A stretch of 64,000 nucleotides of DNA from an uncultured Gammaproteobacteria bacterium (GTDB taxonomy: Bacteria > Patescibacteriota > Microgenomatia > UBA8517). Made by a program: the position numbers and the translations under genes. The notes below the pieces were generated by a model. It saw only the letters and a list, made by a program, of their open reading frames with translations. It had not been told where the DNA came from and did no database searches. Each line of letters begins with the position of its first letter. Position 1 is the first letter of the stretch. The stretch covers positions 23,367 through 87,366 of the forward strand of contig CAYHMW010000002.1 in NCBI GenBank assembly GCA_964357925.1, given 5' to 3'. Shown here one piece after another: positions 4,064 to 61,915 of this stretch.

Positions 4064-4082
4064 AATATATTATAATAACCCA

Positions 4083-4251
4083 CATGTTTCTGACGTCACT
4101 TCTATTTATCACAATATGCAACGCACTAGTAGTTGCACTACTGCTTGTAACAGAACATCCAGGATATGCAATTAAATTTTCAAATTATTTATTTTTGGCA
4201 CTCACGATTCATCTACTTGTCACCCTGTTAAAACATGCGAAAAAGTCATAG
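4083..4251 (+). CDS. possible small 2-TM membrane protein (56 aa), doubtful
   Basis: Internal ATG of the 3943..4251 ORF. It lies in the divergent intergenic region after a TATAAT-like box, and its hydrophobic sequence is MFLTSLLFITICNALVVALLLV... Confidence 0.2.
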
Positions 4252-9472: not shown

Positions 9473-9510
9473 GGCTTCAACCTCCTTACATATTAAAGTA
9501 AAATATAGTC

Positions 9511-33648: not shown

Positions 33649-34260
33649 GTGAAAAAAGCTCTCCCCGTAATCCTAGTCGTTGTAGGACTCCTGACAATTG
33701 GTGGGGTTTTTGCAGTTAGAAGTTTCTTAAGAGGGCCAAGTGATCAAATGGAAGAAAATGCTCCTGATGTTCCTGTTGGGCAGAGGCCATTTACAAGCCT
33801 TACTCCAAGTGAGGATGGTCACTGGCTCAAGCTTAAGATCAAAAATGTTAGTGTTGAAGGAGCCGCATCTTTCGATTATGAGCTTCTATACACCCGTGGC
33901 GATGGTATCGATCAAGGTGTACCAGGGAATATAAAGTATAGTAAAGGCGAGACAATCGAACGCGATCTACTATTGGGCTCAGAGTCCTCAGGTAGATTCC
34001 GCTACGACGAAGGCGTCGAAAAAGGTATGCTCACGCTTCGTTTCCGTGATGGTAAAGGCAAGCTAATCGGCAAGCTGAAAACCGACTTTCACCTCCAATC
34101 AGGTGTTAAAGAGGCAACATCAGTCGATGGCAGCTTCAAGGCAGATGTCAGCGGAGCCGATGACAATACTTTCTTCGTGGTAATGCAAACTTTCGGCAAA
34201 AGTGACGACTTCGATGGCGGGTACGCCGTGTTCAGTTCTGACGGCGAAGACTACAACTGA
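33649..34260 (+). CDS. hypothetical exported protein (signal peptide/TM anchor)
   Basis: GTG start. N-terminal KKALPVILVVVGLLTIGGVFA. Gly/Asp-rich mature part. Confidence 0.45.
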   Translation: MKKALPVILVVVGLLTIGGVFAVRSFLRGPSDQMEENAPDVPVGQRPFTSLTPSEDGHWLKLKIKNVSVEGAASFDYELLYTRGDGIDQGVPGNIKYSKGETIERDLLLGSESSGRFRYDEGVEKGMLTLRFRDGKGKLIGKLKTDFHLQSGVKEATSVDGSFKADVSGADDNTFFVVMQTFGKSDDFDGGYAVFSSDGEDYN

Positions 34261-37693: not shown

Positions 37694-37720
37694 GTACATG
37701 TTTGCTATAATCCAAAGTTC

Positions 37721-38473
37721 ATGAAAGATGTCTCAGCCGTAGTCCTCGCGGCAGGAAAAGGAAGTCGACTAAAAGGGAACAAACCTAAAGTTCTCAAAAT
37801 TCTAGGTGGACAACCAATTATTATTCGAATACTGAAACTGCTCGACAAGCTTAAAATTCAAAATCGAATTCTGGTTCTCGGGCACAGATCCAACACAATT
37901 CTAGACAAACTCTTAAAATCTAATTACAAAGAAAATATCTTAATTCAGAAAGAGCCCCAAGGAACGGCCCACTCACTTCAATTTGTTATTAGGCTAATAA
38001 GTACAAAAGAAGTTCTCGTACTTTATGGAGATGATTCAGGACTTTATAGACCACAAACCATTAAGAATTTTGTTAAATACCATATAAATTCAGGAAACAA
38101 AGCTACCTTCATGGTTTCAAAAGTTAATCAGAAAACAGATATAGGCGGAATACTTCTAGATAAAAAAGGATATGTCATGACAGTTGTCACCCGAAGCCAG
38201 ATGGAAGAACACGATATTAATCAAATACGTAACCTCTGTGGAGCTTTTTGTTTCAATTCGCAATGGATTTCCAAAAACATATCAAATATACCAAAAAGTG
38301 AAATTAGTGGTGAGTATCCGTTGCCAGGCATAATCAAAATAGCAAATTCTCAGGAAGTAAAAATCGGCAGCTATTTATTGCCGGATCAAAATGAATGGAA
38401 CAGTCTGAATACTAATAAAGAATTAATAGAAGCTAGAAAAAAGATGAAAAAAAAGCTGCAAATTAAAAAATGA
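37721..38473 (+). CDS. sugar-1-phosphate nucleotidyltransferase, GlmU N-terminal (uridylyltransferase) domain-like; no LbH acetyltransferase domain
   Basis: AVVLAAGKGSRLK...PKVL, PQGTAHSL (cf. GlmU EQLGTGHA). Confidence 0.6.
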   Translation: MKDVSAVVLAAGKGSRLKGNKPKVLKILGGQPIIIRILKLLDKLKIQNRILVLGHRSNTILDKLLKSNYKENILIQKEPQGTAHSLQFVIRLISTKEVLVLYGDDSGLYRPQTIKNFVKYHINSGNKATFMVSKVNQKTDIGGILLDKKGYVMTVVTRSQMEEHDINQIRNLCGAFCFNSQWISKNISNIPKSEISGEYPLPGIIKIANSQEVKIGSYLLPDQNEWNSLNTNKELIEARKKMKKKLQIKK

Positions 38474-39453
38474 CTGAAAGAAAAATAGACTTCCATATTC
38501 ACTATAACCCAGAAATTGATTCAACTGCGTACGAGGCGATTGATCGTGCAAGAGAAAGAGGTATTGTGGCGATGGCTTTGATGGGTAAACAACTTGTCTC
38601 CCCCCATTTCAATGATTTTCAAGAATACGGGAAAGAAATAGGAGTCGACGTTTTTTCAGGGATGGAGTTGGTCACTCAAGACGGAAACATTGGCATGAAC
38701 ATCATCGCAATTGGCTTTGATCCCCTCGCTCCTTCTATCGAAAAATGGCGTTCTGATCTTGAAAACAAGGATATTATGGCACAAAGATATAAGGCTCAAT
38801 ACGAATATCTTTTGAATTCTGGTTACATTTTTCCAGAAACAGAAGAAGCAAACAACATACTATCGACACTGCTTGACGGCTCAAATGACCAGGGAGCGAT
38901 TGAATACTGCAGAATGATTTCTGACTATCTGCCTAACCACCAGCATATCGAAGTTGATAAATTAAGCGAACCAGAAACATGGAAAGAAACTGTTGAGAAG
39001 TATAGCGATATTCCAGAGTATTCACACATGTTGGAGGCTAAGTTTTTATATAAAAAACATTTTGCATTTGGCAAACCAGGGAACTTTATCAGGTTTACTG
39101 ATACAAATGAAGCTATTAATCGAATTCATAGTGCAGGAGGAGTTGCTCTATATTCGCCAGAAGGAAGTTTTGAACAAGAAAAATGGGATCGACTTATAGA
39201 ACTCCAAATCGACGGAATAATGGCATGGCATGGTGGAAAATTAGGAATGTCTGGCCACTCAAAAGATGTTCCACTAAGCGTCTTAAAAAATGCACTTCGA
39301 TCTGATCTCCTTATTCTTGGAGGGAGTGACTATCAAGCTAAAGACTGGCAAGCAGGTGTTGGAAACGGAGAAATGTTCATTAGTTCTAGGCGACTTGGAG
39401 ACTTGAGAAAATATCAAAAGCAAATGGATCGAAGAATCTTTAACAATACTTGA
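38470..39453 (+). CDS. PHP-domain-like metal-dependent phosphoesterase (tentative)
   Basis: IDFHIHYNPEIDS...A..RGIVAMAL N-terminal His motif and a C-terminal GGSDYQ (GSDAH-like) motif. Confidence 0.35.
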   Translation: MTERKIDFHIHYNPEIDSTAYEAIDRARERGIVAMALMGKQLVSPHFNDFQEYGKEIGVDVFSGMELVTQDGNIGMNIIAIGFDPLAPSIEKWRSDLENKDIMAQRYKAQYEYLLNSGYIFPETEEANNILSTLLDGSNDQGAIEYCRMISDYLPNHQHIEVDKLSEPETWKETVEKYSDIPEYSHMLEAKFLYKKHFAFGKPGNFIRFTDTNEAINRIHSAGGVALYSPEGSFEQEKWDRLIELQIDGIMAWHGGKLGMSGHSKDVPLSVLKNALRSDLLILGGSDYQAKDWQAGVGNGEMFISSRRLGDLRKYQKQMDRRIFNNT

Positions 39454-39463
39454 GCTAAAAATA

Positions 39464-40585
39464 GTGAGAAAAATTAAAAAAGGTCTTCACATTGGAATTG
39501 CACTAATCGCAAATCTCATTTACGGTATGCCCGGGAAGCGGTTAAAGTTAATCGGTGTAACCGGAACAGACGGCAAAACAACAACTGTCTTGATGATTTA
39601 CCACATTTTAAAAAATGCGGGCTATAAAGTCGGGTATATTTCAACAATCGGCTATGACGTAGGCGGTAAACGCTTTGATCAGGGTTTACATGTGACTACA
39701 CCATCTAGCTTAGTGCTGCAAAAATTGTTGAGAGCTGCAGTCAACAATAAGCTCACTCATCTAGTACTTGAGTCAAGCTCTCACGGCCTCGATCAAAACA
39801 GGTTATTGGGATGTCACTTTGAAGTGTCTGTGATTACAAACATAACCCCCGAACACCTGGATTATCACAAGACTTACGATAATTACTTAAACACAAAGGC
39901 AAAACTGCTGAGTCTTTCAAAAGTAAAGTTAATAAACAAAGGTGATCGAAGCTATAAGGAATTGATAAAAAAATTTCCAGATAGTATTGCTTTTGAATTT
40001 GAGGACTTCGGTTTTGCAGAAAAATATAATAACGAGAACGCAGCGGCAGCCGCCAAAGTCTGCAAGGAAATAGGTATAAAGGAGAAGGAAATTAAAAAAT
40101 ATCTTAAATCTTTCGAGTTTCCTGCTGGGAGATATGATGTTGTACAAAAGAAACCTTTTACAGTTATAGTTGACTTTGCCCACACACCAAACGGTTTAAT
40201 AAATTTTCTAAGTTCACTTCCTAAGTCCAGTGGAAAACTAATTCACATCTTCGGATGCGCAGGTGAAAGAGATAAATACAAACGTCCGGAAATGGGAAAA
40301 AATTCAGCGAGTTTCGCTGACATTATTATATTAACCGCCGAAGATCCCAGGTCAGAAAAGGTTGAAGACATTAATGGCTCAATTAAAAAAGGAATACCTA
40401 AGTCATTCAAAGGCAAGTTGATAGAAGTTCATGATCGTGGAAAGGCAATTGCCACAGGGATAAAGTTGGCAAAAGTAGGTGATAGAGTTGTCATAACAGG
40501 CAAAGGACCGGAAAAATCTAACAACATTGGAGGAGTTGAATACCCTTGGTCTGATTTAGAAGAAGTTAAAAAATATTTAGAATGA
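39464..40585 (+). CDS. murE: Mur ligase, MurE-like (UDP-MurNAc-tripeptide synthetase), N-terminally short
   Basis: ATP-binding loop LIGVTGTDGKTTT appears about 30 aa from the start. Mur ligase middle and C-terminal regions are present. Position is after ftsI. Confidence 0.6.
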   Translation: MRKIKKGLHIGIALIANLIYGMPGKRLKLIGVTGTDGKTTTVLMIYHILKNAGYKVGYISTIGYDVGGKRFDQGLHVTTPSSLVLQKLLRAAVNNKLTHLVLESSSHGLDQNRLLGCHFEVSVITNITPEHLDYHKTYDNYLNTKAKLLSLSKVKLINKGDRSYKELIKKFPDSIAFEFEDFGFAEKYNNENAAAAAKVCKEIGIKEKEIKKYLKSFEFPAGRYDVVQKKPFTVIVDFAHTPNGLINFLSSLPKSSGKLIHIFGCAGERDKYKRPEMGKNSASFADIIILTAEDPRSEKVEDINGSIKKGIPKSFKGKLIEVHDRGKAIATGIKLAKVGDRVVITGKGPEKSNNIGGVEYPWSDLEEVKKYLE

Positions 40586-41355
40586 ATATCAAATCACTCA
40601 ACAAAGAATGCGTTAAAATGGCCAATCGCTATGCAAAACTAAATATTCACAATAAAAAAATACCAACTCCATATTACATAAACAGCATTCAAGGACATTT
40701 CTCAGAGATCTTTAATATGGTTGGTATTCCATCGGAAAAAATTATTGAGATTTGGCGAATCTATAAAAGTAATAAATTTCCATACGGTAGGTACAGAGGT
40801 AAGGGAACACCGGAAGAAATTGAAGACGCGGTAATTAAAGTTTCAACTGCAGTTGGGCTACCACTCGATAATAGTAGCATTGAAGTAATACTAAATTTTA
40901 TGAAGCTTTATGGGCTTGGCGTTGATTGTTCAGGATATGTTTACAACCTCTTAAGTAGCGCCTTTAAAAAAATAGAAGGCAGTGATCAACAGCTGAAAGC
41001 CAGCCTTAACTGGATGGCAAAAAGCAAAAGAGATGTTTGGAATGCTGGAGCGTTCGCTTTTGCTGGCAAAGCTTCAGTATTAGTTACGCCAGAAAGACTT
41101 CAACCGCTTGATCTAATTCTCTTAAAGGATAAAGACCAAAAGTATGTTCATGTAGCTTTAGTAATAAAACACAATGGTAAATTATTAATAACCCAGTCAC
41201 AAATATGTATGAATCCAAGTGGTGTTAGATCTGATAATGCTGTGGCGCTACAGCCAGAGCCTTTATTTGATTATCATCCTGAAATAGGTCCGAGCTGGGA
41301 GGATCTCTATAAGAAAGGTAGACTTGAATTTAGAAGATTAAAAATACTTGCATGA
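40582..41355 (+). CDS. NlpC/P60-family (permuted papain-fold) cysteine peptidase/amidase-like protein, no signal peptide
   Basis: GLGVDCSGYVYNLL resembles the catalytic Cys motif G-x-DCSG-x-V. Downstream PLDLILLKDKDQKYVHVALVIKHNGKLL resembles the GDL.FF...HVGIY His region. There is no N-terminal hydrophobic segment. Confidence 0.45.
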   Translation: MNIKSLNKECVKMANRYAKLNIHNKKIPTPYYINSIQGHFSEIFNMVGIPSEKIIEIWRIYKSNKFPYGRYRGKGTPEEIEDAVIKVSTAVGLPLDNSSIEVILNFMKLYGLGVDCSGYVYNLLSSAFKKIEGSDQQLKASLNWMAKSKRDVWNAGAFAFAGKASVLVTPERLQPLDLILLKDKDQKYVHVALVIKHNGKLLITQSQICMNPSGVRSDNAVALQPEPLFDYHPEIGPSWEDLYKKGRLEFRRLKILA

Positions 41356-42482
41356 AAAATATTAAAACACTTATTTACCATCCCGCCAAAAGGTATCTTG
41401 CTCATTACTACTTAAAAATTTTGAAACTTTTAGGCTGTGAAGTAATTGGAATAACAGGAAGCGCTGGCAAAACAACTACTAAGGAAATGATTGCATCTGT
41501 ACTCAAAACTAAATACAAAGTTGCCTACTCATTAGCCAATATCGACCCTGTTTATAACATTCCCAATACAATTCTCAAAACACCTCTATGGACCAAAAAA
41601 TTAGTTCTAGAAATGGGGGTAGAATTTCCGAGGGAAATGAACTTTTACATATGGCTTGCGAACCCAGACGTTGGAGTTTTGACAAACGTTACTTGGACTC
41701 ACACTCAGTTTTTTAAAAATATCGAGGGTGTGGCTGCTGAAAAAAGTAAACTTATCAAATCGCTCCCAAAAAATGGACTAGCAATTTTAAACAAAGACGA
41801 CGCGAGAGTCGCAAAGCTTGCACACAAAACAAATGCAAAGGTAATTTATTTTGGATCGGGCGAGAAAAACAAAGTACACGCAACTGATATTAAGTTTACA
41901 AAAAATCTTACTACCTCTTTCATATTACATGTTGGTAAAGAAAAAACTGAAGTTACCCTTGCAGTTCTTGGTAGGCATTTTGTTGATCTTGCTTTGGCAG
42001 CAGCTGCAGTCGGCAACAACAGTAAAATTCCACTTCAAAAAATTAGAGAAGGTTTGGAAAATTTCAAAAGTGAACCCCACAGAATCCACCCACACGTCTT
42101 AAAAAATGGAACTTTAATTTTAGACGACACTTACAACGCCAATCCAGAAGCAGTTCTTCGGGCAATAGATGTATTAAAAGAGGTTGGCAAAAGCAAAAAA
42201 ACAATTTTAGTTTTAGGAGAAATGAAAGAGCTCGGCAGTTACGCAAAATCCGGACATATCCTCGTTGGCAATTACGCCAAAAAGCAAAAAATTGCTAAAC
42301 TACTTAGCCTGGGGAAAGAAACACTGTATACAGTTGATGCTTTCGGAAAAGGTGGAAAATATTTTAAAAGTAAAAGAGAAATAGTAAAAGAGCTTAGAAG
42401 CTTAAAAACTCCCCACACAATACTAATAAAAGGTTCAAGATCAATGGGCATGGAAGAAATTGTAAAGACACTAATATCATAA
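41352..42482 (+). CDS. murF: Mur ligase, MurF-like (UDP-MurNAc-pentapeptide synthetase), N-terminally short
   Basis: VIGITGSAGKTTTKEM P-loop and a Mur ligase C-domain. Position is before ddl-mraY. Confidence 0.65.
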   Translation: MKNIKTLIYHPAKRYLAHYYLKILKLLGCEVIGITGSAGKTTTKEMIASVLKTKYKVAYSLANIDPVYNIPNTILKTPLWTKKLVLEMGVEFPREMNFYIWLANPDVGVLTNVTWTHTQFFKNIEGVAAEKSKLIKSLPKNGLAILNKDDARVAKLAHKTNAKVIYFGSGEKNKVHATDIKFTKNLTTSFILHVGKEKTEVTLAVLGRHFVDLALAAAAVGNNSKIPLQKIREGLENFKSEPHRIHPHVLKNGTLILDDTYNANPEAVLRAIDVLKEVGKSKKTILVLGEMKELGSYAKSGHILVGNYAKKQKIAKLLSLGKETLYTVDAFGKGGKYFKSKREIVKELRSLKTPHTILIKGSRSMGMEEIVKTLIS

Positions 42483-42486
42483 ATTC

Positions 42487-43518
42487 ATGAGCAAAAGGCT
42501 TAAAATTGCAGTTTTAATGGGCGGACGTACACCCGAATACGAAATATCTATAATTTCTGGTCAAAGTGTAACTAAAGCACTTGAAGAGAAGGGCCACATT
42601 GTGCTGCCTATTATTGTTTCCAGAGACGGTCAAATCTGGAAGTCGATCGACCCTGACGTTTTGTACAAATTACCAAACCCACTTCTTCTAAAAGGTACAA
42701 ATAAAGAAATTATTTCTACAAAAACAAAATCCCTCGAAAGCCCCACCAGTATTAAGCACCAAGGTGTAGATGTAATTTTCCCCGCAATGCACGGCCCTTT
42801 TGGCGAAGACGGAACAATTCAAGGACTTCTAGATGTACTAGATATTCCGTATATTGGCTCCGGTGTTCTGGCAAGCGCTATTGGAATGAACAAATATGTC
42901 TTTAGAAAAATATTAAATGGGAGTGGTATTCAATTTCCCAAATTTATAGCACTCAAAAAAAACGATGACCATCAAAACTTTAAAAAAATCTTAGGAAATA
43001 TGCCATATTTTGTAAAGCCAAATTCTCAAGGTTCATCTGTCGGCGCGTCTTTAGTTACAAAAGCCTCAGACCTTAAGGCGGCAATTTCCAAAGCGCTCCA
43101 ATATGGCGACACAGTTTTAATTGATGAGTATATTAAAGGCACCGAACTGACATGTGGTGTTATTGGTAATGATGAATTAGAAGCACTCCCAGTTGTCGAG
43201 ATCGTCACAGAAAGCGACTTTTTCGACTACAACGCCAAATATACCACGAGCACCACGCAAGAAATTGTCCCTGCGAGAATTTCGCCGGAACTAACAAAAA
43301 AAGTACAAGAATTAGCGAAAAGAGTGTACTTGGAAATTGGAGCAAGAGGCTTTGCTCGAGTAGACTTTATTTTACGAAATAATGAATTGTATGTACTGGA
43401 AATTAACACTATTCCGGGGCTTACACCCATGTCTTTGATGCCGAAAGCTGCGAAAGTTGCAGGCTATTCATACAGTGACTTAGTTGAAAAAGTTGTAGAA
43501 CTTGCATTAACCAAGTAG
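42487..43518 (+). CDS. ddl: D-alanine--D-alanine ligase
   Basis: KIAVLMGGRTPEYEISIISG N-terminus, HGPFGEDGTIQGLLDVLDIPYIGSGVLASAIGMNK, ATP-grasp C-terminus. Confidence 0.9.
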   Translation: MSKRLKIAVLMGGRTPEYEISIISGQSVTKALEEKGHIVLPIIVSRDGQIWKSIDPDVLYKLPNPLLLKGTNKEIISTKTKSLESPTSIKHQGVDVIFPAMHGPFGEDGTIQGLLDVLDIPYIGSGVLASAIGMNKYVFRKILNGSGIQFPKFIALKKNDDHQNFKKILGNMPYFVKPNSQGSSVGASLVTKASDLKAAISKALQYGDTVLIDEYIKGTELTCGVIGNDELEALPVVEIVTESDFFDYNAKYTTSTTQEIVPARISPELTKKVQELAKRVYLEIGARGFARVDFILRNNELYVLEINTIPGLTPMSLMPKAAKVAGYSYSDLVEKVVELALTK

Positions 43519-43536
43519 GCTATAATTATTAAAGAG

Positions 43537-44595
43537 ATGAACTTCTACAATACAGCACCTCTAGCACTTGGATTGATAGTATTCTCCTTTCTTATCACAA
43601 GCGCTCTAGTCATCCCATTTATCGACCTCCTTTACAAGTTCAAAATGCTGAGACGCAAAGAAGGAGACTTCAGGGGCAAAAAAGAATCTCTCTTCGATAA
43701 GCTTCATGACAAAAAAGCAGGAACTCCAATTGGCGGAGGCATTTTGCTGATAACTGTAGTCAGCGTAATGTTTCCATTTTTGTTTTCCTTTATCTCCAAT
43801 ATGGGTGTTTTCATCCACACCTCTTTTAAACTTAATTACGAGCTTTTGGTTATCTTCTTCACCTTTCTTGGTTTTGGAGCCATCGGTCTCCTGGACGATC
43901 TTGTTAAAATCTTCGGTAAACCAAAACCAAATATTTACGGCTCTGTATTCGGATTATCAAAAACCCAGAAGTTTGGACTTCAGTGGATTTTAGCTTTTGC
44001 CATCTCTTTTATGCTTTACTTTTTACTTGGAATTCAAATTCTTCACATACCAATTCTTGAAATAACAATCAATCTTGGTCCTCTATACTTACTTTTTTCT
44101 GCATTCATAATTGTTTTCTTTGCAAATGCCTTTAACATCACAGATGGACTCGATGGTCTATCCTCCGGCCTTCTCATGATTTATCTTTTTTCCTATGTCA
44201 TTATCGCAGCCAGCAACTTAGATACACCGCTTTTTATCTTTATTTCTCTCTGGCTTGGCTCAATAATTGCCTTCTTATATTTTAACGTTTGGCCAGCAAG
44301 AATATTTTTAGGCGATGCAGGAGCACTAAGCTTTGGTGCAATGATCGCTGTTATTGGATTAGTTATTGGGAACGTAACAACTCTTTTTATAATTGGAGGT
44401 TTATTTGTAATTGAGGCACTTTCTTCGTTGATTCAAATACTTGGACGAAAATTCCTGAAACGTAAAATTTTTCCCATTGCACCAATTCACCACACTTTTC
44501 TTTGGTTAGGTTGGGAAGAACCAAAAATTGTCATGCGAGCTTGGTTGGCAGGATTAATGCTAGCAATTTTCGGACTCTGGCTTGCAACTATCTAA
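43537..44595 (+). CDS. mraY: phospho-N-acetylmuramoyl-pentapeptide transferase MraY
   Basis: DDLVKIFG and NAFNITDGLDGLSSG motifs; 10 TM helices. Confidence 0.9.
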   Translation: MNFYNTAPLALGLIVFSFLITSALVIPFIDLLYKFKMLRRKEGDFRGKKESLFDKLHDKKAGTPIGGGILLITVVSVMFPFLFSFISNMGVFIHTSFKLNYELLVIFFTFLGFGAIGLLDDLVKIFGKPKPNIYGSVFGLSKTQKFGLQWILAFAISFMLYFLLGIQILHIPILEITINLGPLYLLFSAFIIVFFANAFNITDGLDGLSSGLLMIYLFSYVIIAASNLDTPLFIFISLWLGSIIAFLYFNVWPARIFLGDAGALSFGAMIAVIGLVIGNVTTLFIIGGLFVIEALSSLIQILGRKFLKRKIFPIAPIHHTFLWLGWEEPKIVMRAWLAGLMLAIFGLWLATI

Positions 44596-44598
44596 CTA

Positions 44599-45756
44599 AT
44601 GTCTAGATTATTTTTCTTAAGGCAAAAAAGGGCAAAACACAAAAGTCGCACGATTTCGCACCCCGGAAAGCGTCAAAATACAAGCAGAATACTCTTCGCT
44701 CTAACATTACTATTGACGGGGCTTGGCCTTATAGCAGTGTTTGATGTTAGTTCTCCTCAAGCGATAAGACTTTTCGGTGACCCATATTACTTTGCAAAAC
44801 AACAACTGATGTGGGCAGGGATTGGTTTGGGTGCTTTTGTTGGCGGAAGCGTTATGTCATACAAATTGTTAAGTAAGTACGCACTAGTTATTTTTGGCGT
44901 CTCACTATTATTACTATTGATTGTTTTGATACCAGGTATTGGCTCAAATGTCTTAGGTGCTAGAAGGTGGATAAGGTTAGGACCAGTTGGCATTCAGCCA
45001 TCAGAAGTAGCTAAGTTGGCAGTCATCATAATCATTGCAAAATTTGCAGAGGCAAAATATCCAGTTTGGTACGGTGTTTCAGTACTTGGTATTGTCTCGA
45101 CCCTCATAATGCTTCAACCAGATCTGGGGACAACAATAGTGGTTGCCTCAATTGGCCTGGTCCAGCTATTCGCGGCGGGCTACACGCTTGTAAATCTCGG
45201 TGCCATGGCAGCAGCAGGAACGGGCTTAGCGGGATTACTTGTTATATTTTCTGACTACAGAAGACAACGTCTTATGACGTTTATTAATAACCTCTATGAC
45301 CCATTAAGCCTAGATCTTACGGAAGCATATGGAGCTGGTTATCACATCAGACAGATACTGATCGCAATAGGTTCTGGTGGAATTCTGGGACTGGGAGTGG
45401 GCCAATCTCGCCAAAAACACCTTTTTCTTCCAGAAACAGCCACAGATTCAGTCTTTGCAATTATTGCTGAAGAGTTCGGATTTATTGGAGCAGCAACGCT
45501 AATCATACTGCTTATGTATTTTACACTTGTAGTTGTCAGGGTAGCCATGCACGCTCCTGATAAATTCAGCGCGATCTTGGCAATTGGCATAGCAGGTTGG
45601 ATTGGTGGGCAAACTATACTCAATCTTTCAGCAATGCTCGCTCTCGCGCCGCTTACAGGGATTCCTCTACCATTTTTCAGTTATGGTGGCTCCAGTTTGA
45701 CAATGACACTTTTTTCGGTTGGAATACTTGTAAATATTGGAAATTCAAAAAAATGA
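44599..45756 (+). CDS. ftsW: SEDS-family peptidoglycan glycosyltransferase FtsW
   Basis: SEDS motifs (QPSEVAKLAVII, PETATDSVFAIIAEEFGFIG). Position is between mraY and murG. Confidence 0.85.
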   Translation: MSRLFFLRQKRAKHKSRTISHPGKRQNTSRILFALTLLLTGLGLIAVFDVSSPQAIRLFGDPYYFAKQQLMWAGIGLGAFVGGSVMSYKLLSKYALVIFGVSLLLLLIVLIPGIGSNVLGARRWIRLGPVGIQPSEVAKLAVIIIIAKFAEAKYPVWYGVSVLGIVSTLIMLQPDLGTTIVVASIGLVQLFAAGYTLVNLGAMAAAGTGLAGLLVIFSDYRRQRLMTFINNLYDPLSLDLTEAYGAGYHIRQILIAIGSGGILGLGVGQSRQKHLFLPETATDSVFAIIAEEFGFIGAATLIILLMYFTLVVVRVAMHAPDKFSAILAIGIAGWIGGQTILNLSAMLALAPLTGIPLPFFSYGGSSLTMTLFSVGILVNIGNSKK

Positions 45757-46859
45757 GCAATAAAATTTTACTTACTGGTGGCCACGCAGGTTCGACAGCC
45801 CTCGCAACAATTAAGGCAATTCAGAAAGCCAGGAGAGCTACCCAAGAAATCTATTGGGTCGGTGCGGCTTCTGCGCACACGGGTATAAACACTGGCAAGA
45901 CTTTTGAAGAGCGAGAATTTGGCAAACACGACATAAATTATCTTAAAATTCATGCTGGCAAAATCCCAAGAAAGATTACTTTCTATGCCCTTATAAATTC
46001 CTTGTTACTGCCAGTGGGCTTCTTTGAGGCCTTGTGGCTAATCGCAAAGATTCGTCCAAATGTAATTGTCAGTTTCGGCGGCTACGCCGCATTCCCCGTA
46101 GTAGTTATTGGCTATCTAATGCAAATTCCCATAGTAATTCAAGAGCAGACAGTGGTAGCTGGGCTAACTAACAGGATAACTGCCCGCCTTGCAAGTAAAA
46201 TTGCAATTGGCAGGCCACAGAGTATGGATTTTTTCCCCAAATCCAAAACCGTACTGACTGGCCTTCCGCTTTCCGAGGACATAACGAGTTTGGGACCAAA
46301 GCCAAAAATTGGGAAACCACCAGTGCTTCTGGTAACAGGTGGCAGCAGAGGTGCAAGGCCAATAAATCAAGTAATAGGCAAGGCACTTACTGAAATCCTT
46401 AAAAAATTCAAAGTTATTCATCTGACTGGGGAGATTGATTTCTCAAGAGTCGAAGGTTTCAAAGATACACTTAGCGAGGATCTTGCGCGGAGATACGAAG
46501 TTCACGCACATGTTGCTCCTGATGAAATGAAAGAACTATATAAAAAATCTGACATCATAATATCGAGAGCTGGTGCAAACTCAGCTGCTGAAATACTCTC
46601 AGTTGGCCGACCAGCCATAATCATTCCGCTCCCAATTACATGGTTTGATGAGCAAAGGAAAAACGCACAACTTGCCGAAAATGCCGGTATCGCAGAAGTC
46701 ATTGAACAAAAGGACTTAAATAAACATACACTTTTGACCACCCTCAACAAAATTCTAAAAAATTGGGATGCTATGACCAAAAATTATGATCGATCCTGGG
46801 CAAAGCTCGACAAAAATGCGGCTAACAATGTGGCGGAAATAGTCCTCAGTTACTTATAG
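45753..46859 (+). CDS. murG: UDP-GlcNAc:undecaprenyl-PP-MurNAc-pentapeptide GlcNAc transferase MurG (GT28)
   Basis: Start at the internal ATG 45753 (MSNKILLTGGHAGS), forming an ATGA overlap with ftsW. The ORF track's 45597 start would overlap ftsW by 160 nt. Confidence 0.85.
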   Translation: MSNKILLTGGHAGSTALATIKAIQKARRATQEIYWVGAASAHTGINTGKTFEEREFGKHDINYLKIHAGKIPRKITFYALINSLLLPVGFFEALWLIAKIRPNVIVSFGGYAAFPVVVIGYLMQIPIVIQEQTVVAGLTNRITARLASKIAIGRPQSMDFFPKSKTVLTGLPLSEDITSLGPKPKIGKPPVLLVTGGSRGARPINQVIGKALTEILKKFKVIHLTGEIDFSRVEGFKDTLSEDLARRYEVHAHVAPDEMKELYKKSDIIISRAGANSAAEILSVGRPAIIIPLPITWFDEQRKNAQLAENAGIAEVIEQKDLNKHTLLTTLNKILKNWDAMTKNYDRSWAKLDKNAANNVAEIVLSYL

Positions 46860-47509
46860 TGGTAAAAGCAATAAATCTAGCTCTTGCCTTAATACTAATA
46901 GCATTCTCAATATTAGGTTTACCCAGAATCATCCGAATCAAGCACATAACATGTATAAGTGATAAATCACCATGTCGTGGCGAGACAGTTGAAAAAATTA
47001 GTAAGCACATTGGTATTCCAATTCAAGAGGCTCTAACCAGAGTTCAAAAAGAACTTAATAATAATTCTTTGATTAAGAGTTCAGAGGTAAAATACGTGTT
47101 TCCAAATTCAATTTCAGCCTCAATAGATTACAAAAAACCAGCATTGAGACTCAAATACATAGGTTTTTCTAACACAATTGTCGTTGATGAATCGGGAAGT
47201 ATTATCAGAACTGAAAACGTTGACAATCTACCAACATTGCTAATCGAAGGTAACGCAGGTGAACTTTCAAAATCTATTCCTCTAATTCTAAATTTAAACA
47301 AATATTATGGTTTCAACTATTTCACATTAACAAAAGATGTGTTAAGTACAAAAACAAAAGACGATATCGCTCTAGTAATACCGACAGATAATGATATTGA
47401 CATAACGCTTGGGTCAATAAATTTGACTCTTTCCCAGTTGAATAGGCAATTACAAGGAATTAGAATTGAAGAGATTGACTTTAGGTACAAAAACCCCATT
47501 GTAAGATAG
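46859..47509 (+). CDS. ftsQ: cell division protein FtsQ/DivIB-like (TM plus POTRA)
   Basis: N-terminal TM helix then a POTRA-like region. Position is between murG and ftsA. Confidence 0.55.
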   Translation: MVKAINLALALILIAFSILGLPRIIRIKHITCISDKSPCRGETVEKISKHIGIPIQEALTRVQKELNNNSLIKSSEVKYVFPNSISASIDYKKPALRLKYIGFSNTIVVDESGSIIRTENVDNLPTLLIEGNAGELSKSIPLILNLNKYYGFNYFTLTKDVLSTKTKDDIALVIPTDNDIDITLGSINLTLSQLNRQLQGIRIEEIDFRYKNPIVR

Positions 47510-48780
47510 TGAAAATGACTAAAAGCAAAATTATAGCCGCCATTGATATAGGTTCCTCGAAGGTGACATCGCTCCTCGCGCAAGCTGTAGTCGAACAGGC
47601 CACCTTAGAAACGGTCATAAATATTATGGGAGTGTCGACTGTGCCTTCAAAAGGCATAAAAAAGGGTCAGATTGTCGACATTGAAGAAGCAGTTGAAGCA
47701 ACAATAATATCTGTTGAAGGAGCAGAGCGGATGGCTGGCTACAATATTGACAAAGCGTTTGTCTCGGTGGGAGGGGGGCATATCCAATCGCAAAACAGCA
47801 AAGGTGTAGTCGCTGTATCGGATCCAAATGGTGAAGTTTCAGGTGAAGATGTTGGTCGTGTAATAGAATCGGCTAGAGCAGTTTCACTCCCTGCCTCAAG
47901 AGAAATCATCCATGTGATTCCAAGAGAATACATTGTCGATGGTGAAGCAGGCGTGCGTGACCCAGTTGGGATGACCGGAGTGCGTCTTGAAGTTGAGACA
48001 CATCTTGTGACAGCGAGTTCACCAGCCCTGAAAAACCTCACAAAGACTATAAAGGAAGTTGGCGTTGATATCGAAGAAACAGTTTTCTCAGCCCTCGCCG
48101 CAAGCCACTCGACACTCACAGGGACCGAGAAGGAATTGGGCTGTGTCCTCATTGATATTGGAGCTGGAACCACCTCAATTGCTGCACATATCGATAACGC
48201 ACTTGCCTATTCAGGCTCGATACCCATAGGTGCAAGAAATGTAACAAATGATTTAGCAATCGGCCTTCGGGTAACACTCGATACTGCAGAGAAAATAAAA
48301 ATTGCACTAAATAATCCTCCTAAAAGAGGTGATGATGGAAAGCAAATGGACTTGACTGAATTCGGCGCAAAAGAACACAAAAAGATTTCGACTAGAACAT
48401 TAACCGAAGGAATAATAAGACCACGCTTGAATGAAATATTTTCAATGGTCAAGTTAGATTTGGAGCGAGCAGGACTCATTCACAGAGTCCCTTCAGGCGC
48501 AATTCTCTGTGGTGGTGGAGCATTAACTTCAGGCATTGAGGAATCCGCAAGAAGAACGCTTGGTTTACCAGTTAGAGTTGCAAAACCCGGTGGAGTCGGC
48601 GGACTTATTGACGATACTGGCACACCTGAGTACGCAGCCGCCGTTGGACTAATCCTATATGGCGCTGGCTCTGGCGGAAAGTTTATAGAAAGTAAGCAAT
48701 TTATGCCAACAAAGCTCAGTCTTCCTGGAAGGGGCGCATTTGGTAACGCAGTCCGAATGATCAAAGATTTACTGCCGTAA
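47509..48780 (+). CDS. ftsA: cell division protein FtsA
   Basis: Actin-fold N-terminus IIAAIDIGSSKVTSLLA. Position is before ftsZ. Confidence 0.9.
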   Translation: MKMTKSKIIAAIDIGSSKVTSLLAQAVVEQATLETVINIMGVSTVPSKGIKKGQIVDIEEAVEATIISVEGAERMAGYNIDKAFVSVGGGHIQSQNSKGVVAVSDPNGEVSGEDVGRVIESARAVSLPASREIIHVIPREYIVDGEAGVRDPVGMTGVRLEVETHLVTASSPALKNLTKTIKEVGVDIEETVFSALAASHSTLTGTEKELGCVLIDIGAGTTSIAAHIDNALAYSGSIPIGARNVTNDLAIGLRVTLDTAEKIKIALNNPPKRGDDGKQMDLTEFGAKEHKKISTRTLTEGIIRPRLNEIFSMVKLDLERAGLIHRVPSGAILCGGGALTSGIEESARRTLGLPVRVAKPGGVGGLIDDTGTPEYAAAVGLILYGAGSGGKFIESKQFMPTKLSLPGRGAFGNAVRMIKDLLP

Positions 48781-48839
48781 CTTTTGACTTTCTGCCCTCA
48801 TCTGCTACACTGCGCTTAAGTTTTTTTTAGAGAGATTAT

Positions 48840-57639: not shown

Positions 57640-59151
57640 CTAGTGAGTGTTCCTTTGAAAGGCATCAAAACTTGTAGTTCGCTTCAAAGGTGATGGGTCA
57701 ATATTTTGAAGCTCAGAAATCGAGTTTACATTCCTAAAAACCATCGCAAGAATTGCATCCTCAATCAGTAAGTGCAAATTATAAGTTAAAGTCGGCAAGG
57801 CATGTTTTACATAACTTTTTGTGGCACGGGCCGTCTCTCCCTCAACAAATGATGGCACATTAAATGGCAACAATTTGCCATCAAGATACTTTGTCCGAGC
57901 TGAAGCTTCACCGCCATAGGGCTTAAATAGCTCACCCTTTTCGTCAACGCAATACAAGCCCCCTCCAGGAGACTCTATTGTTCCCCCAGAGACTACTCTT
58001 GAAACACTTATTCCCGAGGCTCCCAATAAAAGTGTTGCTGCCACATGATCAGATGCCCCTCCCTCAACAATTATTGGAATGTGAATTTTTCCACGCAAAT
58101 TCCATACAAGCTCTGGCCAATCAATGACAGATCCACTGCGTACGCCCGTAATACACCGGCCTCCACCACCAATCCCAATATAAAGTCCATCAGCGCCAGC
58201 TTCCTCTGCCTCAACACACTGGCGGTCATCAACCATCATCCCGGCGAAAATCTCAATTTCACCTGAAAAAGTTTTTCGAAGTGCTCGAATTGAGTTTACT
58301 ACTCCAGTTCCAGGCTCTGGAGAGTAAACTCGAAATGTTCGTACACCAGCTGAGTACAAAATATGTGCACGCTTCACAACATCCTCAGGAGTAGCCCCTA
58401 GAGTACCACAAACATTTTTTCTCCAGAGGGTAGATATGAATTCTCTATCAGATCGACCGCGAAGCAGATCCCGTTCAAGCTCGTCAAGCCAGTCAAAAAC
58501 TTCTCTTGCCAAATCGGCCTGTCTTGTAACGTCAGCTGTTACACCGTTTCTTGGGATGCATGCCAGACAGTGTGAAGCGGCCATAGTAGAAATCGAAGCG
58601 GCGCTATTCCAAACATCAGGCGATGCAGAGCCAACAAAGAGACTCCTTGCTTGCCGCCCAAGCTTCACAAATGGTCCATCAGCGTACCGCTCGTTCCGGC
58701 TGCGACGCTCCGTCTGACTCCCGCAAACGCTAGCACCAAGATCTCCAATTGATATCGAAAGCCCTGTGTTTTTTGCGTATTCAAAAGTCGTGCTTGAAAC
58801 GATTTTTGGAGCGCTGAATTCTTCTTTGTCAACATGTCTCAAAGCACGAACGCGGTAAGGGTGATTAAACATCTCCAAAAAAAGTCTCCTTAATCTTAGA
58901 GTTTGTACAATTTCTTCAAAAGGCAAAAGCTGCTTGGATTTATACTTTAAATAGTCATGAGGAGTTGTGAGCAGTCCTTGTGATGGATAAACATGTTTAT
59001 CCTCTTTACTAAATGCCAACCAGGGAGATAAATAAACCTCAGTATCGCGCTCGCGAGGTTTCAAGATTGCTTTTATCTTGCGTTCGCCAATTTCAGGGTC
59101 TCGAAGATCATAAAAGTCCCTTTTTGCTTTCTCAATTCTTGGCCCAAGCAT
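57640..59151 (-). CDS. IMP dehydrogenase/GMP reductase-family protein lacking CBS domains, with an N-terminal extension of about 200 aa of unknown function
   Basis: Catalytic loop GIGGGGRCITG (cf. GSGSICIT), IPIIVEGGASDHVAATLLLGASGISVSRVVSGGTIESPGG (cf. IADGGI...KALALGAS...GSLLAGT.E.PGE) and KPYGGEAS (cf. YRGMGS). Start taken at Met65 (59151) of the 567-aa ORF so that it does not overlap the divergent rdgB. The core is visibly more GC-rich than its flanks. Confidence 0.65.
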   Translation of the reverse strand: MLGPRIEKAKRDFYDLRDPEIGERKIKAILKPRERDTEVYLSPWLAFSKEDKHVYPSQGLLTTPHDYLKYKSKQLLPFEEIVQTLRLRRLFLEMFNHPYRVRALRHVDKEEFSAPKIVSSTTFEYAKNTGLSISIGDLGASVCGSQTERRSRNERYADGPFVKLGRQARSLFVGSASPDVWNSAASISTMAASHCLACIPRNGVTADVTRQADLAREVFDWLDELERDLLRGRSDREFISTLWRKNVCGTLGATPEDVVKRAHILYSAGVRTFRVYSPEPGTGVVNSIRALRKTFSGEIEIFAGMMVDDRQCVEAEEAGADGLYIGIGGGGRCITGVRSGSVIDWPELVWNLRGKIHIPIIVEGGASDHVAATLLLGASGISVSRVVSGGTIESPGGGLYCVDEKGELFKPYGGEASARTKYLDGKLLPFNVPSFVEGETARATKSYVKHALPTLTYNLHLLIEDAILAMVFRNVNSISELQNIDPSPLKRTTSFDAFQRNTH

Positions 59152-59181
59152 ACAAATACAGTTATATAGTACACTGTCACC

Positions 59182-59736
59182 ATGAACAAGCTCCTTTTTG
59201 GCACAACGAATCAGGGAAAGCTCCGTGAGGCCGAAAACATACTGGGGATTGAACTTGATGGCATTAGTCTTGAAATTGATGAAGTCCAATCTCTTGATCG
59301 AACATTGGTAGCTACAAAAAAAGCAGAAGCCTATTTTGCACAAATTAAAAAACCATTATTTATCGAAGACACTTCGCTTGTGTTCAACACATTAGGAAAT
59401 TTGCCTGGCACATTTATTGATTACTTTTTGAAAGAACTCGGAAACGACGGTCTACTTAAATTATTGAAAAACAACAAAGATCGTAAGTCCACAGCAACTG
59501 TGTGTATCGTCTATATCGATAAAAATCAAAAACAACTATTTACAGGTGAAACTAAAGGTACTATTTCATTAAGAACCAAGGGTAACAAGGGTTTTGGCTG
59601 GGACCCAATATTTATCCCAAATGGCTCCAAAAAAACCTTTGGCGAGATGAACATTGAAGAGAAAAACAAGTATTCTATGAGACGCAAAGCTCTTGAGAAG
59701 TTCAAAAAGCGGCTAGATAAAGCATACCCACAATAA
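59182..59736 (+). CDS. rdgB: non-canonical purine NTP pyrophosphatase (ITPase/XTPase, RdgB/Ham1 family)
   Basis: LLFGTTNQGKLREA N-terminal motif, FGWDPIF motif. Confidence 0.85.
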   Translation: MNKLLFGTTNQGKLREAENILGIELDGISLEIDEVQSLDRTLVATKKAEAYFAQIKKPLFIEDTSLVFNTLGNLPGTFIDYFLKELGNDGLLKLLKNNKDRKSTATVCIVYIDKNQKQLFTGETKGTISLRTKGNKGFGWDPIFIPNGSKKTFGEMNIEEKNKYSMRRKALEKFKKRLDKAYPQ

Positions 59737-59812
59737 GGACCCGTAACTCAGAGGCCAGAGTGTTCGATTCACATTCGAAAAGTCGATGGTTCAAATCCAT
59801 CCGGGTCCACCA
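59737..59812 (+). tRNA. tRNA-Val (anticodon CAC), CCA encoded
   Basis: Hand-folded cloverleaf. Acceptor GGACCCG/CGGGTCC. D-stem ACTC/GAGT. Anticodon stem TTCGA/TCGAA with loop TTCACAT. T-stem GATGG/CCATC with T-loop TTCAAAT. Discriminator A plus CCA. Confidence 0.8.
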
Positions 59813-59844
59813 AGTGCGCCTGCCCGCCTTTGGAGGGAGCACCC

Positions 59845-60519
59845 TTACTCCAACACAGCCTTCTCAAACTCACTTATAAAACTCAAAAACTCAGGGTGGG
59901 CTTCATGCACACCTGCTTTCATCTCCTCGCGAGTTACATCACCCAGTCTCGTATAAACATAAACCACCTGGCTGGTGCTCTGATCAAAAGTGTAATAAAC
60001 CCTGTGATACGAACTCGATGGAAAGTAAAAATACTCAGCAATCGCCCAATCGCGCCCACCGATATTTTTAAGTTCAACAGTGGCTTTCGGATTGCACCCA
60101 TAAAAAACAGCACAAGAAAGGGCCGTTTGTGAGCCGGGTTTAAGTTTCACAAATTGATCCACCTCATCATCAAGGTCGATCGTCCAGTCCAGACTCTCAA
60201 ATCCGGCAATAAAAGAACTTTCACCAGGAAAATACTTGTAAGAAGTTAAAGCTATGCGATCCTGATCAAATTCAAAGTAGGCAACCTCGCTCTTATTTTG
60301 ATCATGCACCACTTCTCCACCAAATACTTCGCCCAATTTATTACGCATATCTTGATACGCGTTTACCGGAGTTGCCGTAGGCCCGGGAATAAATTTGTCG
60401 TACCCAATATTGTTCTGTGAAAAAGAATAAAGAACTAATAAAACCAAAAGCATTATAAAAACCACAACAAGCAGAGCAGTAGGTAAAAATCCACGACGAA
60501 TCACTTTAAATTTCGACAT
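59845..60519 (-). CDS. hypothetical membrane-anchored protein
   Basis: Start taken at MSKFKV (60519), overlapping the upstream stop (ATGTCGAAATTTAA). TM helix FLPTALLVVVFIMLLVLLVLY. The ORF track allows extension to 60618. Confidence 0.45.
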   Translation of the reverse strand: MSKFKVIRRGFLPTALLVVVFIMLLVLLVLYSFSQNNIGYDKFIPGPTATPVNAYQDMRNKLGEVFGGEVVHDQNKSEVAYFEFDQDRIALTSYKYFPGESSFIAGFESLDWTIDLDDEVDQFVKLKPGSQTALSCAVFYGCNPKATVELKNIGGRDWAIAEYFYFPSSSYHRVYYTFDQSTSQVVYVYTRLGDVTREEMKAGVHEAHPEFLSFISEFEKAVLE

Positions 60520-61915
60520 TAAATTTCCATAATACCGAAGACTCGATTCCACATCCTCCATCTTCAGTTTGTGCTGCCCAAGGATCCTCACTTTCACCAC
60601 TCCAGCCATTTGGATCAACCATCACAAAAGTACTACCATTTGGAGCGCTATATTTACACACTGACTTCTTGCTTATGTTAAATGAGACGGATTCGTTAAC
60701 TGCAATCTGACTTGCCAAATTATCCCAGTCCGACTTTTTCATTTTATTAAAAGCCGTAAGTCCAATGTCAGGAAGTTTAATCATCGAAGCAAAATGCAGA
60801 TGTTTTCCTGACGAATTTCCAGTCGATCCCATGCTACCTATTTGACCTGTTTCATCCGTTGTTGAGTCAAAACCGACATTAATTTCTTTCAAATGAGCAT
60901 AAAGCCCGTACAAGTTCTGATATTCATCGGTAGAATAGTCAACTATTACAACACAACCAAAAGGCCCCTTTGGTTTACATTTATCGTTGCCAACGCTCGG
61001 AATATCAAGCGATCTATAAACTACAGCTCCAACACCCACAGACCTTACGACGTCATCAGGAAAAGGTAAAAAATCCACACCAGTGTGAGAATCGTAACAA
61101 GCAGCACGGTTTGTATTACAATCAATAGGTAAGTATTCATCACCCAAAAAATTAACAAACGATTCTTTAGCTGGTTGATGGTCAAAAAGTGAGTTATAAC
61201 GATCAAAGAAAGCTTGAGCAAACGTCTCCGGATCATCTTCCCCCCGACCAGGATAGTCAAACGGAAGTTCAAATGGTCCAATGGGCTCTGTCCTCAAAGA
61301 AGTTACCCTTACATCATCAAACCAGACTTGAGTTGGGCCTACGTCCCCCGTACCAGCACGCAAGCCAACACGCCAATTATTAAATCTCGGTAAAGGATCA
61401 GTTGCACTGAGAACGGGTTCAGATGAATTATTTATGAACACGTTAATTAATTTATCGTCATTAACTACAATTCTGAAATTATAATCGAACCCGTTAAACA
61501 GAGGAAAGGTCGCTGAGTCCAACTCCCCATACCCTGTCTTATCTAAAATAAGCTGATTTGTCGCTCCAGTTGTGTGATGTATTTCCAAAAATTCCGAGGG
61601 TGATTTGTACTTAACTAAGATGTTTTTATCTACTCCTGACGCACCGCGCAAAGTCACTGAATACTCAATATTTTTCCAAGAATCATCCCATATATCCGGA
61701 AGTGAATTACTGACTCCCGACAAGCTAATACCATACCGACCATCTTGGACACTCCACCCAGGTACACCATCTACATGCCATCCACTCGCGTCACCATCAT
61801 TAAAGTTATCAGAGAACAGGACAATAGCTAAAGCGCTCGAGGGAGTCATCAAACACCATATATTTAAAAATAGCAACACCAAGAAAACTCCTCTCCAAGC
61901 AGTTCGACGTTTCAC
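60506..61915 (-). CDS. secreted M23-family (LytM/lysostaphin-like) metallopeptidase with an N-terminal beta-rich (lectin/LamG-like) domain
   Basis: Signal peptide MKRRTAWRGVFLVLLFLNIWCLMTPSSALA. M23 motifs HTGVDF (HxxxD) and GKHLHF (HxH). Confidence 0.75.
   Translation of the reverse strand: MKRRTAWRGVFLVLLFLNIWCLMTPSSALAIVLFSDNFNDGDASGWHVDGVPGWSVQDGRYGISLSGVSNSLPDIWDDSWKNIEYSVTLRGASGVDKNILVKYKSPSEFLEIHHTTGATNQLILDKTGYGELDSATFPLFNGFDYNFRIVVNDDKLINVFINNSSEPVLSATDPLPRFNNWRVGLRAGTGDVGPTQVWFDDVRVTSLRTEPIGPFELPFDYPGRGEDDPETFAQAFFDRYNSLFDHQPAKESFVNFLGDEYLPIDCNTNRAACYDSHTGVDFLPFPDDVVRSVGVGAVVYRSLDIPSVGNDKCKPKGPFGCVVIVDYSTDEYQNLYGLYAHLKEINVGFDSTTDETGQIGSMGSTGNSSGKHLHFASMIKLPDIGLTAFNKMKKSDWDNLASQIAVNESVSFNISKKSVCKYSAPNGSTFVMVDPNGWSGESEDPWAAQTEDGGCGIESSVLWKFNVEI

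Follow-up and report, generated by a model that had tools for sequence, protein, structure and literature searches.

The 64,000-nucleotide stretch of contig CAYHMW010000002.1 analyzed here (the window) carries a gene, termed X, whose product belongs to the superfamily of inosine 5'-monophosphate (IMP) dehydrogenase (IMPDH) and guanosine 5'-monophosphate (GMP) reductase (GMPR), and this gene is divergently paired with one encoding a RdgB/Ham1 inosine triphosphate (ITP) pyrophosphatase (ITPase). On sequence criteria, X falls in a distinct, uncharacterized clade of the superfamily. A clade with this N-terminal domain, this altered active-site signature, and this pairing or fusion with Ham1 appears to be undescribed in the literature searched; the enzyme superfamily itself, the ITPase, and the database name “IMP dehydrogenase” for homologues of X are already known. 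X is most likely an IMPDH-type enzyme that would convert IMP to xanthosine 5'-monophosphate (XMP), a prediction from sequence and gene context to which we give about an even chance.

X represents a distinct clade of the IMPDH/GMPR superfamily

A Pfam search of X returned PF00478 only (residues 245 to 421; 56.4 bits, against a gathering cutoff of 25.6), so that the profile check suggested by an earlier sequence-only reading of this DNA places the protein in the superfamily. There was no Pfam match to a CBS domain (PF00571), as that reading had said, and the site of the CBS insertion in the barrel is taken by a helical hairpin of two helices (residues 208 to 245). The comparison “as in GuaC” that had been attached to this absence does not hold, since CBS-less canonical IMPDHs exist, for example in loci L075 and L077, described below. 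The Cys loop GIGGGGRCITG, the GG...GAS...ESPGG region, and the Y..GG..S tail named earlier were all located in the 503-residue protein, and the motifs VEGGAS and ESPGG are also found in it.

Full-length homologues with 60 to 68% identity number in the hundreds and come from Woesebacteria, Amesbacteria, Collierbacteria, Dojkabacteria, and other Patescibacteria; the databases label some of them “IMP dehydrogenase” and others “hypothetical protein.” The family is common in Patescibacteria, which have very small genomes. In species-representative genomes, 79 loci were found, almost all of them Patescibacterial by record title, and several of the titles (e.g., “uncultured Pseudomonadales”) look like placeholder labels. 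An exhaustive HMMER search of 1.84 billion cluster representatives widened the family, giving 95 matches with E <= 1e-10, and a metagenome scan with a narrower family alignment yielded 10 loci.

Conservation was counted in 72 Patescibacterial homologues with at least 45% identity, in six with less than 45%, and in 52 distant members. The positions conserved at 95 to 100% in the 72 are YPxQG (residues 55 to 59), NHxxR (residues 96 to 100), R149, R152, P178, R201, Q211, R274-x-Y276-S-x-E279, G-G-G-G-R-C333-x-T335, E363-G-G, E393, Y412-G-G-E415-A-S-x-R419, and E437-G. Among the six, Y55-P56 fall to 66% and N96 falls to 83%, and D179, R385, and K421, which are kept at 95 to 100% only in the 72, become D/E, Gly, and Arg, respectively. 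The predicted catalytic residues C333, T335, and E437 are present in 100% of the 72. C333 and T335 are likewise at 100% in the six, with E437 at 83% (one of the six open reading frames [ORFs] is incomplete). In the 52 distant members, the Cys is found in 98 to 100% and the Thr in 94%, and Glu437-Gly is found in 100% (MAFFT alignment) or 75% (alignment to the Patescibacterial profile). Of the distant members, 98% have R274 and 98% have Y276, and position 276 is Tyr in 98 to 100% of the family. X has all of the clade signatures, namely, YPxQG, NHxxR, RxY(S/D)P, G-G-G-G-R-C-x-T, and Y-G-G-E-A-S.

The first 200 residues had been described as matching nothing recognizable, which stands for about 135 of them and fails for residues of about 135 to 200, which form the normal start of the barrel. 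Three mappings, based on Pfam coordinates in the relatives P0169, P0147, and P0133 with their alignment to X and on a profile alignment to IMPDHs in the PDB, put the beginning of the IMPDH domain at about residues 134 to 143. The extension ahead of it is helical (residues 4 to 17, 19 to 34, 37 to 46, 78 to 95, 98 to 109, and 121 to 129) and contains the invariant motifs VYPSQG (residues 54 to 59) and NHPYR (residues 96 to 100). Comparison with solved structures gave no matching fold. The alignments of the 95 wider-family representatives to X begin at residues 10 to 150, and therefore the extension belongs to the whole family and not to one lineage; it is also occupied in the distant members. 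The suggestion that an N-terminal extension marks a distinct family is thus upheld, as the extension is both real and conserved.

X is coupled to Ham1 by gene order and by fusion

The spacer between the two start codons is exactly 30 nt long, and the ITPase passes TIGR00042, in agreement with the divergent pairing reported before. The arrangement recurs in relatives. Of 25 close loci (distinct loci in which X is at least 59% identical and there is room upstream), 19 have Ham1 next to X in divergent orientation. In L024, it lies directly upstream of X on the same strand, and L104, from the metagenome scan, contains a further divergent pair. The other neighbors are not conserved in the close loci, the next commonest being a signal peptidase (five to six loci), and therefore the pairing has been kept while the surroundings change. 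In the part of the clade with 56% identity or less, Ham1 was found within 10 kb only in L026.

Distant family members of 690 to 800 residues are fusions, with a Ham1p_like domain at the N terminus and an IMPDH domain at the C terminus according to Pfam (P0147, P0169, P0178, and P0200). A Ham1 domain is present in 22 of the 71 near-full-length distant representatives, and the order is always Ham1, N-terminal extension, barrel. One fusion (P0279) comes from a metagenome-assembled genome (MAG) labeled SAR324, outside the Patescibacteria. This pattern provides independent support for a predicted functional coupling between Ham1 and X, which we regard as strongly supported. The papers on RdgB/Ham1/ITPA that were searched describe neither a dedicated IMPDH-like partner nor a Ham1-IMPDH-like fusion, and the literature searched held no relevant paper on such a fusion or on the X family in the Candidate Phyla Radiation.

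The spacer has TATATA in its middle, and no Shine-Dalgarno-like sequence is seen on either side. No consensus promoter was found inside it in a scan, and promoter and terminator sites between positions 57000 and 60000 were no more frequent than in shuffled sequence. In the spacers of relatives (L004 to L031), the gaps between matched coding stretches are mostly 25 to 80 nt. Either promoter sequences must extend into the coding regions, or the transcripts must be nearly leaderless.

At the other end of the pair, a tRNA-Val(CAC) gene begins at position 59737, directly behind the Ham1 stop codon (a gap of 0 nt). Several relatives likewise have a tRNA gene immediately 3' of Ham1 (Val-CAC in L009 and L011, Ala in L019, and Asp in L021); in L006 and L015, the tRNA genes at this site (Glu and Gly) are on the opposite strand.

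The genomic contexts of X center on IMP

Neighbors were counted across 99 loci with X. The GMP synthase gene (guaA) is adjacent in five of these (L057, L075, L077, L093, and L096), where X is 27 to 53% identical to the protein of the window; in L093, the guaA gene upstream of X was found by tblastn. The gene purB occurs in four loci and purA in three to four (L005, L017, L026, and L062), and in L075, purA is about 7 kb away. X, purB, and purA are codirectional in L062 and L017, as are X and purB in L026, and in L005 a convergent purB-purA pair lies directly downstream of X. A phosphoribosyltransferase (PRTase) is encoded beside X in four loci, HAD hydrolases in two to three, and NUDIX proteins in three. 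Little could be learned from the surroundings of three Ham1-X fusion genes or from those of four stand-alone genes of distant members, apart from guaA in L093.

In L096, the order is PRTase, purine nucleoside phosphorylase (PNP), GMP synthase, a deaminase (on the other strand), X, and serine hydroxymethyltransferase (SHMT). There is no canonical guaB within this 14.3-kb locus, and therefore X sits where an IMPDH would be needed. Most loci show no canonical guaB nearby. No guaA, guaB, guaC, purA, or purB gene turned up elsewhere in the 64-kb window when it was searched by tblastn with the three E. coli Gua proteins and with PurA and PurB. The earlier proposal of a purine-nucleotide module built with the ITPase gains from these data, given the divergent pairs, the fusions, and the recurrence of guaA, purA, purB, PRTase, and PNP genes as neighbors.

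Some further gene arrangements were seen in these loci. SHMT is encoded directly downstream of X (25 to 237 nt) in five loci that hold the most divergent stand-alone members (L082, L093, L096, L097, and L098). L026 (positions 1921 to 6844) is compact, with Ham1 on the minus strand followed on the plus strand by genes for a CYTH-domain triphosphatase-like protein, X, a HAD hydrolase, and PurB. A HAD hydrolase gene lies between X and purB in L017 as well, and its product may be a nucleotidase partner.

X as a putative IMPDH

All of these contexts center on IMP: Ham1 forms it from ITP, PRTase and PNP lead from the base to it, PurA and PurB lead from it to AMP, and GuaA takes XMP on to GMP. The conversion of IMP to XMP is the simplest single fit because the Ham1 fusion would then join consecutive steps, the adjacency to guaA would follow classical guaBA logic, and purA and purB would stand for the second of two branches. 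What X binds, in which direction it works, which cofactor it uses, and what its N-terminal domain does are inferred from sequence and context. X would bind a purine nucleoside 5'-monophosphate, work via a covalent Cys-C2 intermediate (of the E-XMP* type), and drain the IMP pool toward GMP synthase by forming XMP. Ham1 would return ITP and xanthosine triphosphate (XTP) to IMP and XMP, and PurA and PurB would take the other branch from IMP. As a speculation, the N-terminal extension, which lies between Ham1 and the barrel in the fusions, may dock Ham1 or may rebuild a dinucleotide site remodeled by the change of Asp to Tyr276. A module of an ITPase with IMP-consuming enzymes is physiologically sensible because the loss of ITPase is harmful when IMPDH or PurA is impaired and IMP and then ITP accumulate (PMC9016069).

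The active site offers further points of agreement. All IMPDHs and GMPRs have a Cys/Thr/Glu triad in common (PMC2525682), and X retains it as Cys333, Thr335, and Glu437, along with ribose- and phosphate-binding elements (E363-G-G, ESPG, and Tyr412). X shares the barrel and the triad with IMPDH (GuaB; EC 1.1.1.205; PF00478, TIGR01302) and differs from it in having Tyr276 in place of Asp; it also lacks the CBS pair, a common but not universal part of IMPDHs whose absence does not decide the matter. The family profile gives canonical IMPDHs 42 to 50 bits and E. coli GuaC 17 bits, which was counted in favor of an IMPDH-type reaction. The cyanobacterial GuaB3, a divergent and CBS-less protein that is treated as a functional IMPDH (PMC13273366), is a precedent for a true IMPDH of divergent sequence.

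Several observations weigh against an IMPDH-type reaction. In an hmmalign alignment to E. coli GuaB, Tyr276 takes the place of the Asp through which IMPDH binds the NAD nicotinamide ribose; the RVYSPEPG segment is aligned with L/D/S/H there, and both E. coli GuaB and the GuaB of L075 have Asp at the position of Tyr276. Several contacts to IMP are changed, and the replacements are themselves conserved (Gly331 for Ser, Arg332 for Ile, Glu363 for Asp, Arg385 for Ser, and Glu415 for Met); E415 of YGGEAS stands for the Met of YRGMGS. The flap between Ser417 and Glu437 has 19 residues, compared with 24 in E. coli GuaB and 17 in E. coli GuaC. There is no clear counterpart of the IMPDH-specific, water-activating Arg-Tyr dyad of the flap; K421-Y422 is found instead, with a Tyr that is not conserved. 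Position 421 is a conserved K/R, and the next residue is Tyr in about 72 to 75% of homologues in a region where the alignment is uncertain and the predicted local distance difference test score is low (62 to 73). X scores 41 bits with the IMPDH equivalog model TIGR01302, against a cutoff of 481.5, and is also far below the cutoffs of the IMPDH models NF005493 (37.4 versus 585) and NF005311 (20.8 versus 779).

A final point on this side comes from two operons. In L077 (positions 7743 to 13100), genes for an adenosine deaminase family protein, a canonical CBS-less GuaB (384 residues; 433 bits with PF00478), X, and GuaA are codirectional with gaps of 21 to 59 nt, and L075 (positions 6906 to 11494) is similar in having a canonical guaB with X and guaA. 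The X proteins of both loci carry all of the family signatures. CBS-less canonical IMPDHs thus occur alongside X in these lineages, where X is not the sole IMPDH-like enzyme and may do something else.

Alternative functions

It is possible, although clearly less probable in our view than an IMPDH-type reaction, that X is neither IMPDH nor GMPR but a superfamily member of new specificity that keeps the covalent Cys-C2 chemistry. The substrate might be XMP, dIMP, a deaminated or otherwise aberrant purine nucleoside monophosphate, or a nucleoside triphosphate whose product Ham1 cleaves, and a different cofactor site might be built with the N-terminal extension. Such a specificity would agree with the family-invariant changes at base and cofactor contacts (Y276, R332, R385, and E415), with the many invariant Arg residues (R149, R152, R201, R274, and R419), with an N-terminal domain that has no known fold, and with the operons of L075 and L077, which hold both X and a canonical guaB. 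It would also suit the tight coupling to Ham1 and the fusions outside the Patescibacteria, such as that of the SAR324-labeled MAG; hosts of this kind probably have a normal guaB. However, IMP and XMP, which Ham1 forms, are ordinary intermediates in any case, a plain IMPDH is the simpler fit to the guaA and PRTase-PNP contexts, and no result points to a specific alternative substrate.

In a more elaborate form, which we hold equally tentatively, Ham1 and X would work as a dedicated pair of enzymes, made as separate proteins in Patescibacteria and as a fusion elsewhere. The N-terminal helices would dock the ITPase or build a new site, and X would not be a redundant IMPDH; with a new specificity, it would process a monophosphate, or make a triphosphate, that is handled by Ham1. 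If true, this would explain why X lies beside a canonical guaB in some operons, and it would link nucleotide-pool sanitation directly to purine salvage.

A GMPR-type reaction (GMP + NADPH to IMP + NH3) is unlikely. X would then feed IMP to PurA and PurB and so turn guanine into adenine nucleotides, with Ham1 supplying IMP from ITP in parallel, and the X-purB-purA (L062 and L017), X-purB (L026), and L005 arrangements would make up a complete GMP-to-AMP route. A short flap and the lack of an Arg-Tyr dyad are GMPR traits (PMC2525682), and the 19-residue flap of X, intermediate in length between the two enzymes, is nearer to that of E. coli GuaC than to that of E. coli GuaB. The NCBIfam GMPR type-2 models score about as well as the IMPDH models (37 to 40 versus 41 bits), although X falls far below the cutoffs of all of the GMPR models (39.7 versus 344 and 37.1 versus 465.65 for TIGR01305/TIGR01306 and 15 versus 397 for NF003966). 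However, cotranscription with guaA (five loci) or with guaB and guaA (L075 and L077) would set up a futile cycle, so that the guaA contexts argue against this direction. The preference of the family profile for IMPDH over E. coli GuaC also speaks against it, and the Ham1 fusion would join two enzymes that form the same product rather than two consecutive steps. GuaC (EC 1.7.1.7), at about 330 to 350 residues, has no N-terminal extension, unlike X.

GuaB3 proteins (Synechocystis, PDB 8p4q; mycobacterial) resemble X in being CBS-less, divergent IMPDH paralogues, and the actinobacterial GuaB3 gene adjoins a canonical guaB; GuaB3 is not the closest structural or sequence neighbor of X. It is very improbable that X is an inactive or regulatory paralogue tied to a true IMPDH or to Ham1, in the way that mycobacterial GuaB3, with no known activity, lies beside guaB2, for although X adjoins a canonical guaB in L075 and L077 and GuaB3 accompanies actinobacterial IMPDH genes (PMC9790621), the near invariance of Cys333, Thr335, Glu437, and the phosphate and ribose motifs over a large divergence argues for catalysis, the Cys loop of mycobacterial GuaB3 is not conserved (PMC9790621), unlike that of X, and most loci lack a nearby canonical guaB.

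Base composition and origin

X is a native Patescibacterial gene, as judged from its GC content at the third codon position (GC3) and codon usage, its housekeeping neighbors, and the spread of the family across the phylum. The core of the gene had been called more GC-rich than its background, which is correct for raw GC, as positions 58000 to 58760 (0.486 to 0.489) form the highest 760-nt interval in the 64 kb (mean, 0.400; standard deviation, 0.027). It is incorrect as a codon-level anomaly. The excess is confined to the first and second codon positions (GC1, 0.548; GC2, 0.450), and GC3 (0.343 to 0.349) is inside the range of the other genes (about 0.28 to 0.46). When the expected GC was calculated from the protein sequence, with synonymous codon frequencies taken from the 54 other ORFs of the window, the observed values agreed with it, both for the whole gene (0.449 observed versus 0.451 expected; z = -0.15) and for the core (0.487 versus 0.484). 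Gly, Ala, Arg, and Pro make up 33% of the core compared with 22% in the rest of the window, and ftsA and ftsZ, 8 to 10 kb upstream, have a GC content (0.458 to 0.460) that is likewise raised for amino acid reasons. With observed GC equal to that expected from the amino acids and GC3 no different from background, composition gives no hint of horizontal transfer. The GC and codon-usage check thus traced the excess to amino acid content, the outcome that had been named in advance as counting against the GC claim, and the horizontal acquisition suggested earlier is not supported, in view also of the neighbors and of the distribution of the family across Patescibacteria.

That the gene pair is a horizontally acquired island is accordingly a reading with hardly any probability left, for the peak of GC and the abutting tRNA gene, which might suggest it, are set against GC values expected from native codon usage, the same GC in ftsA and ftsZ, housekeeping surroundings, and a family and Ham1 pairing that are widespread in related lineages. 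The neighboring genes encode a penicillin-binding protein (PBP; 35975 to 37693), FtsA, FtsZ, KsgA, IleRS, an FtsW/RodA-like protein, L21, L27, ParB, and a signal peptidase; several of these names rest on reading of the ORF translations.

Two other GC features were seen. A bump at about positions 59650 to 60100 is probably explained by the tRNA-Val(CAC) gene (59737 to 59812, plus strand). A 170-residue ORF at positions 33748 to 34260 (plus strand) is the only checked ORF with a real codon-level excess (GC3, 0.465 against an expected 0.366; total GC, 0.478 against 0.435); it had no Pfam match at 1e-5 and no Rfam match.

Features and surroundings in the window

The coordinates of the features are collected in Table 1. 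The ATG start of X is backed by its homologues, all of which begin within a few residues of the same site. A longer, 567-residue reading (57640 to 59343, minus strand, from a TTG at 59343) would enter the Ham1 gene with an overlap of 162 nt and has no homologue support; it is an ORF-calling artifact.

Table 1. Coordinates of gene X, its parts, and the adjoining ITPase gene in the window
Feature	Position	Strand	Remarks
Gene X	57640..59151	minus	503 aa from ATG; stop codon 57640-57642; IMPDH/GMPR-superfamily protein of the ITPase-coupled clade
N-terminal extension	58762..59151	minus	aa 1-130 (about 135); helical, family-specific
IMPDH-type (beta/alpha)8 barrel	57643..58761	minus	aa 131-503; no CBS insertion
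Family signature RVYSPEPG	58309..58332	minus	aa 274-281; Tyr276 at the NAD-ribose-binding Asp position of IMPDH
Catalytic loop GIGGGGRCITG (predicted)	58144..58176	minus	aa 326-336; Cys333 and Thr335; aligned with GIGPGSICTTR of IMPDH
YGGEAS, short flap, and EGE motif	57835..57918	minus	YGGEAS, aa 412-417; flap, aa 418-436; Glu437 in EGE
Divergent intergenic spacer	59152..59181		30 nt between start codons
RdgB/Ham1 non-canonical purine NTP (nucleoside triphosphate) pyrophosphatase (ITPase)	59182..59736	plus	184 aa; PF01725, 152.8 bits; TIGR00042, 153 bits (cutoff, 145.35)

Elsewhere in the window, positions 35975 to 50006 (plus strand) look like a cell division and cell wall cluster, with the PBP (a transpeptidase), FtsA (47515 to 48780), and FtsZ (48840 to 50006); it belongs to a run of about 37 codirectional ORFs from 9511 to 50006. 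Beyond the tRNA gene, a 257-residue ORF without a Pfam family (59845 to 60618, minus strand) overlaps by about 110 nt the next ORF (60506 to 61915, minus strand) at its GTG-extended start; this ORF encodes an M23 peptidase of 469 residues from the GTG or of 447 residues from an ATG at 61849. Gene boundaries in this region are uncertain.

Implications for Patescibacteria

Patescibacteria are mostly unable to make purines de novo and must interconvert those that they scavenge. The X family looks like a core purine-branch-point enzyme of these bacteria, and its repeated pairing and fusion with an ITPase constitute a Rosetta-stone link of which the literature searched gave no account. Should X be a true IMPDH, it illustrates the extent to which a cofactor site can be remodeled, with Asp changed to Tyr and a new N-terminal domain, and it would fill a pathway hole in metabolic reconstructions of Patescibacteria. 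If it is not, the family would represent a new nucleotide-metabolizing activity tied to sanitation of the nucleotide pool.

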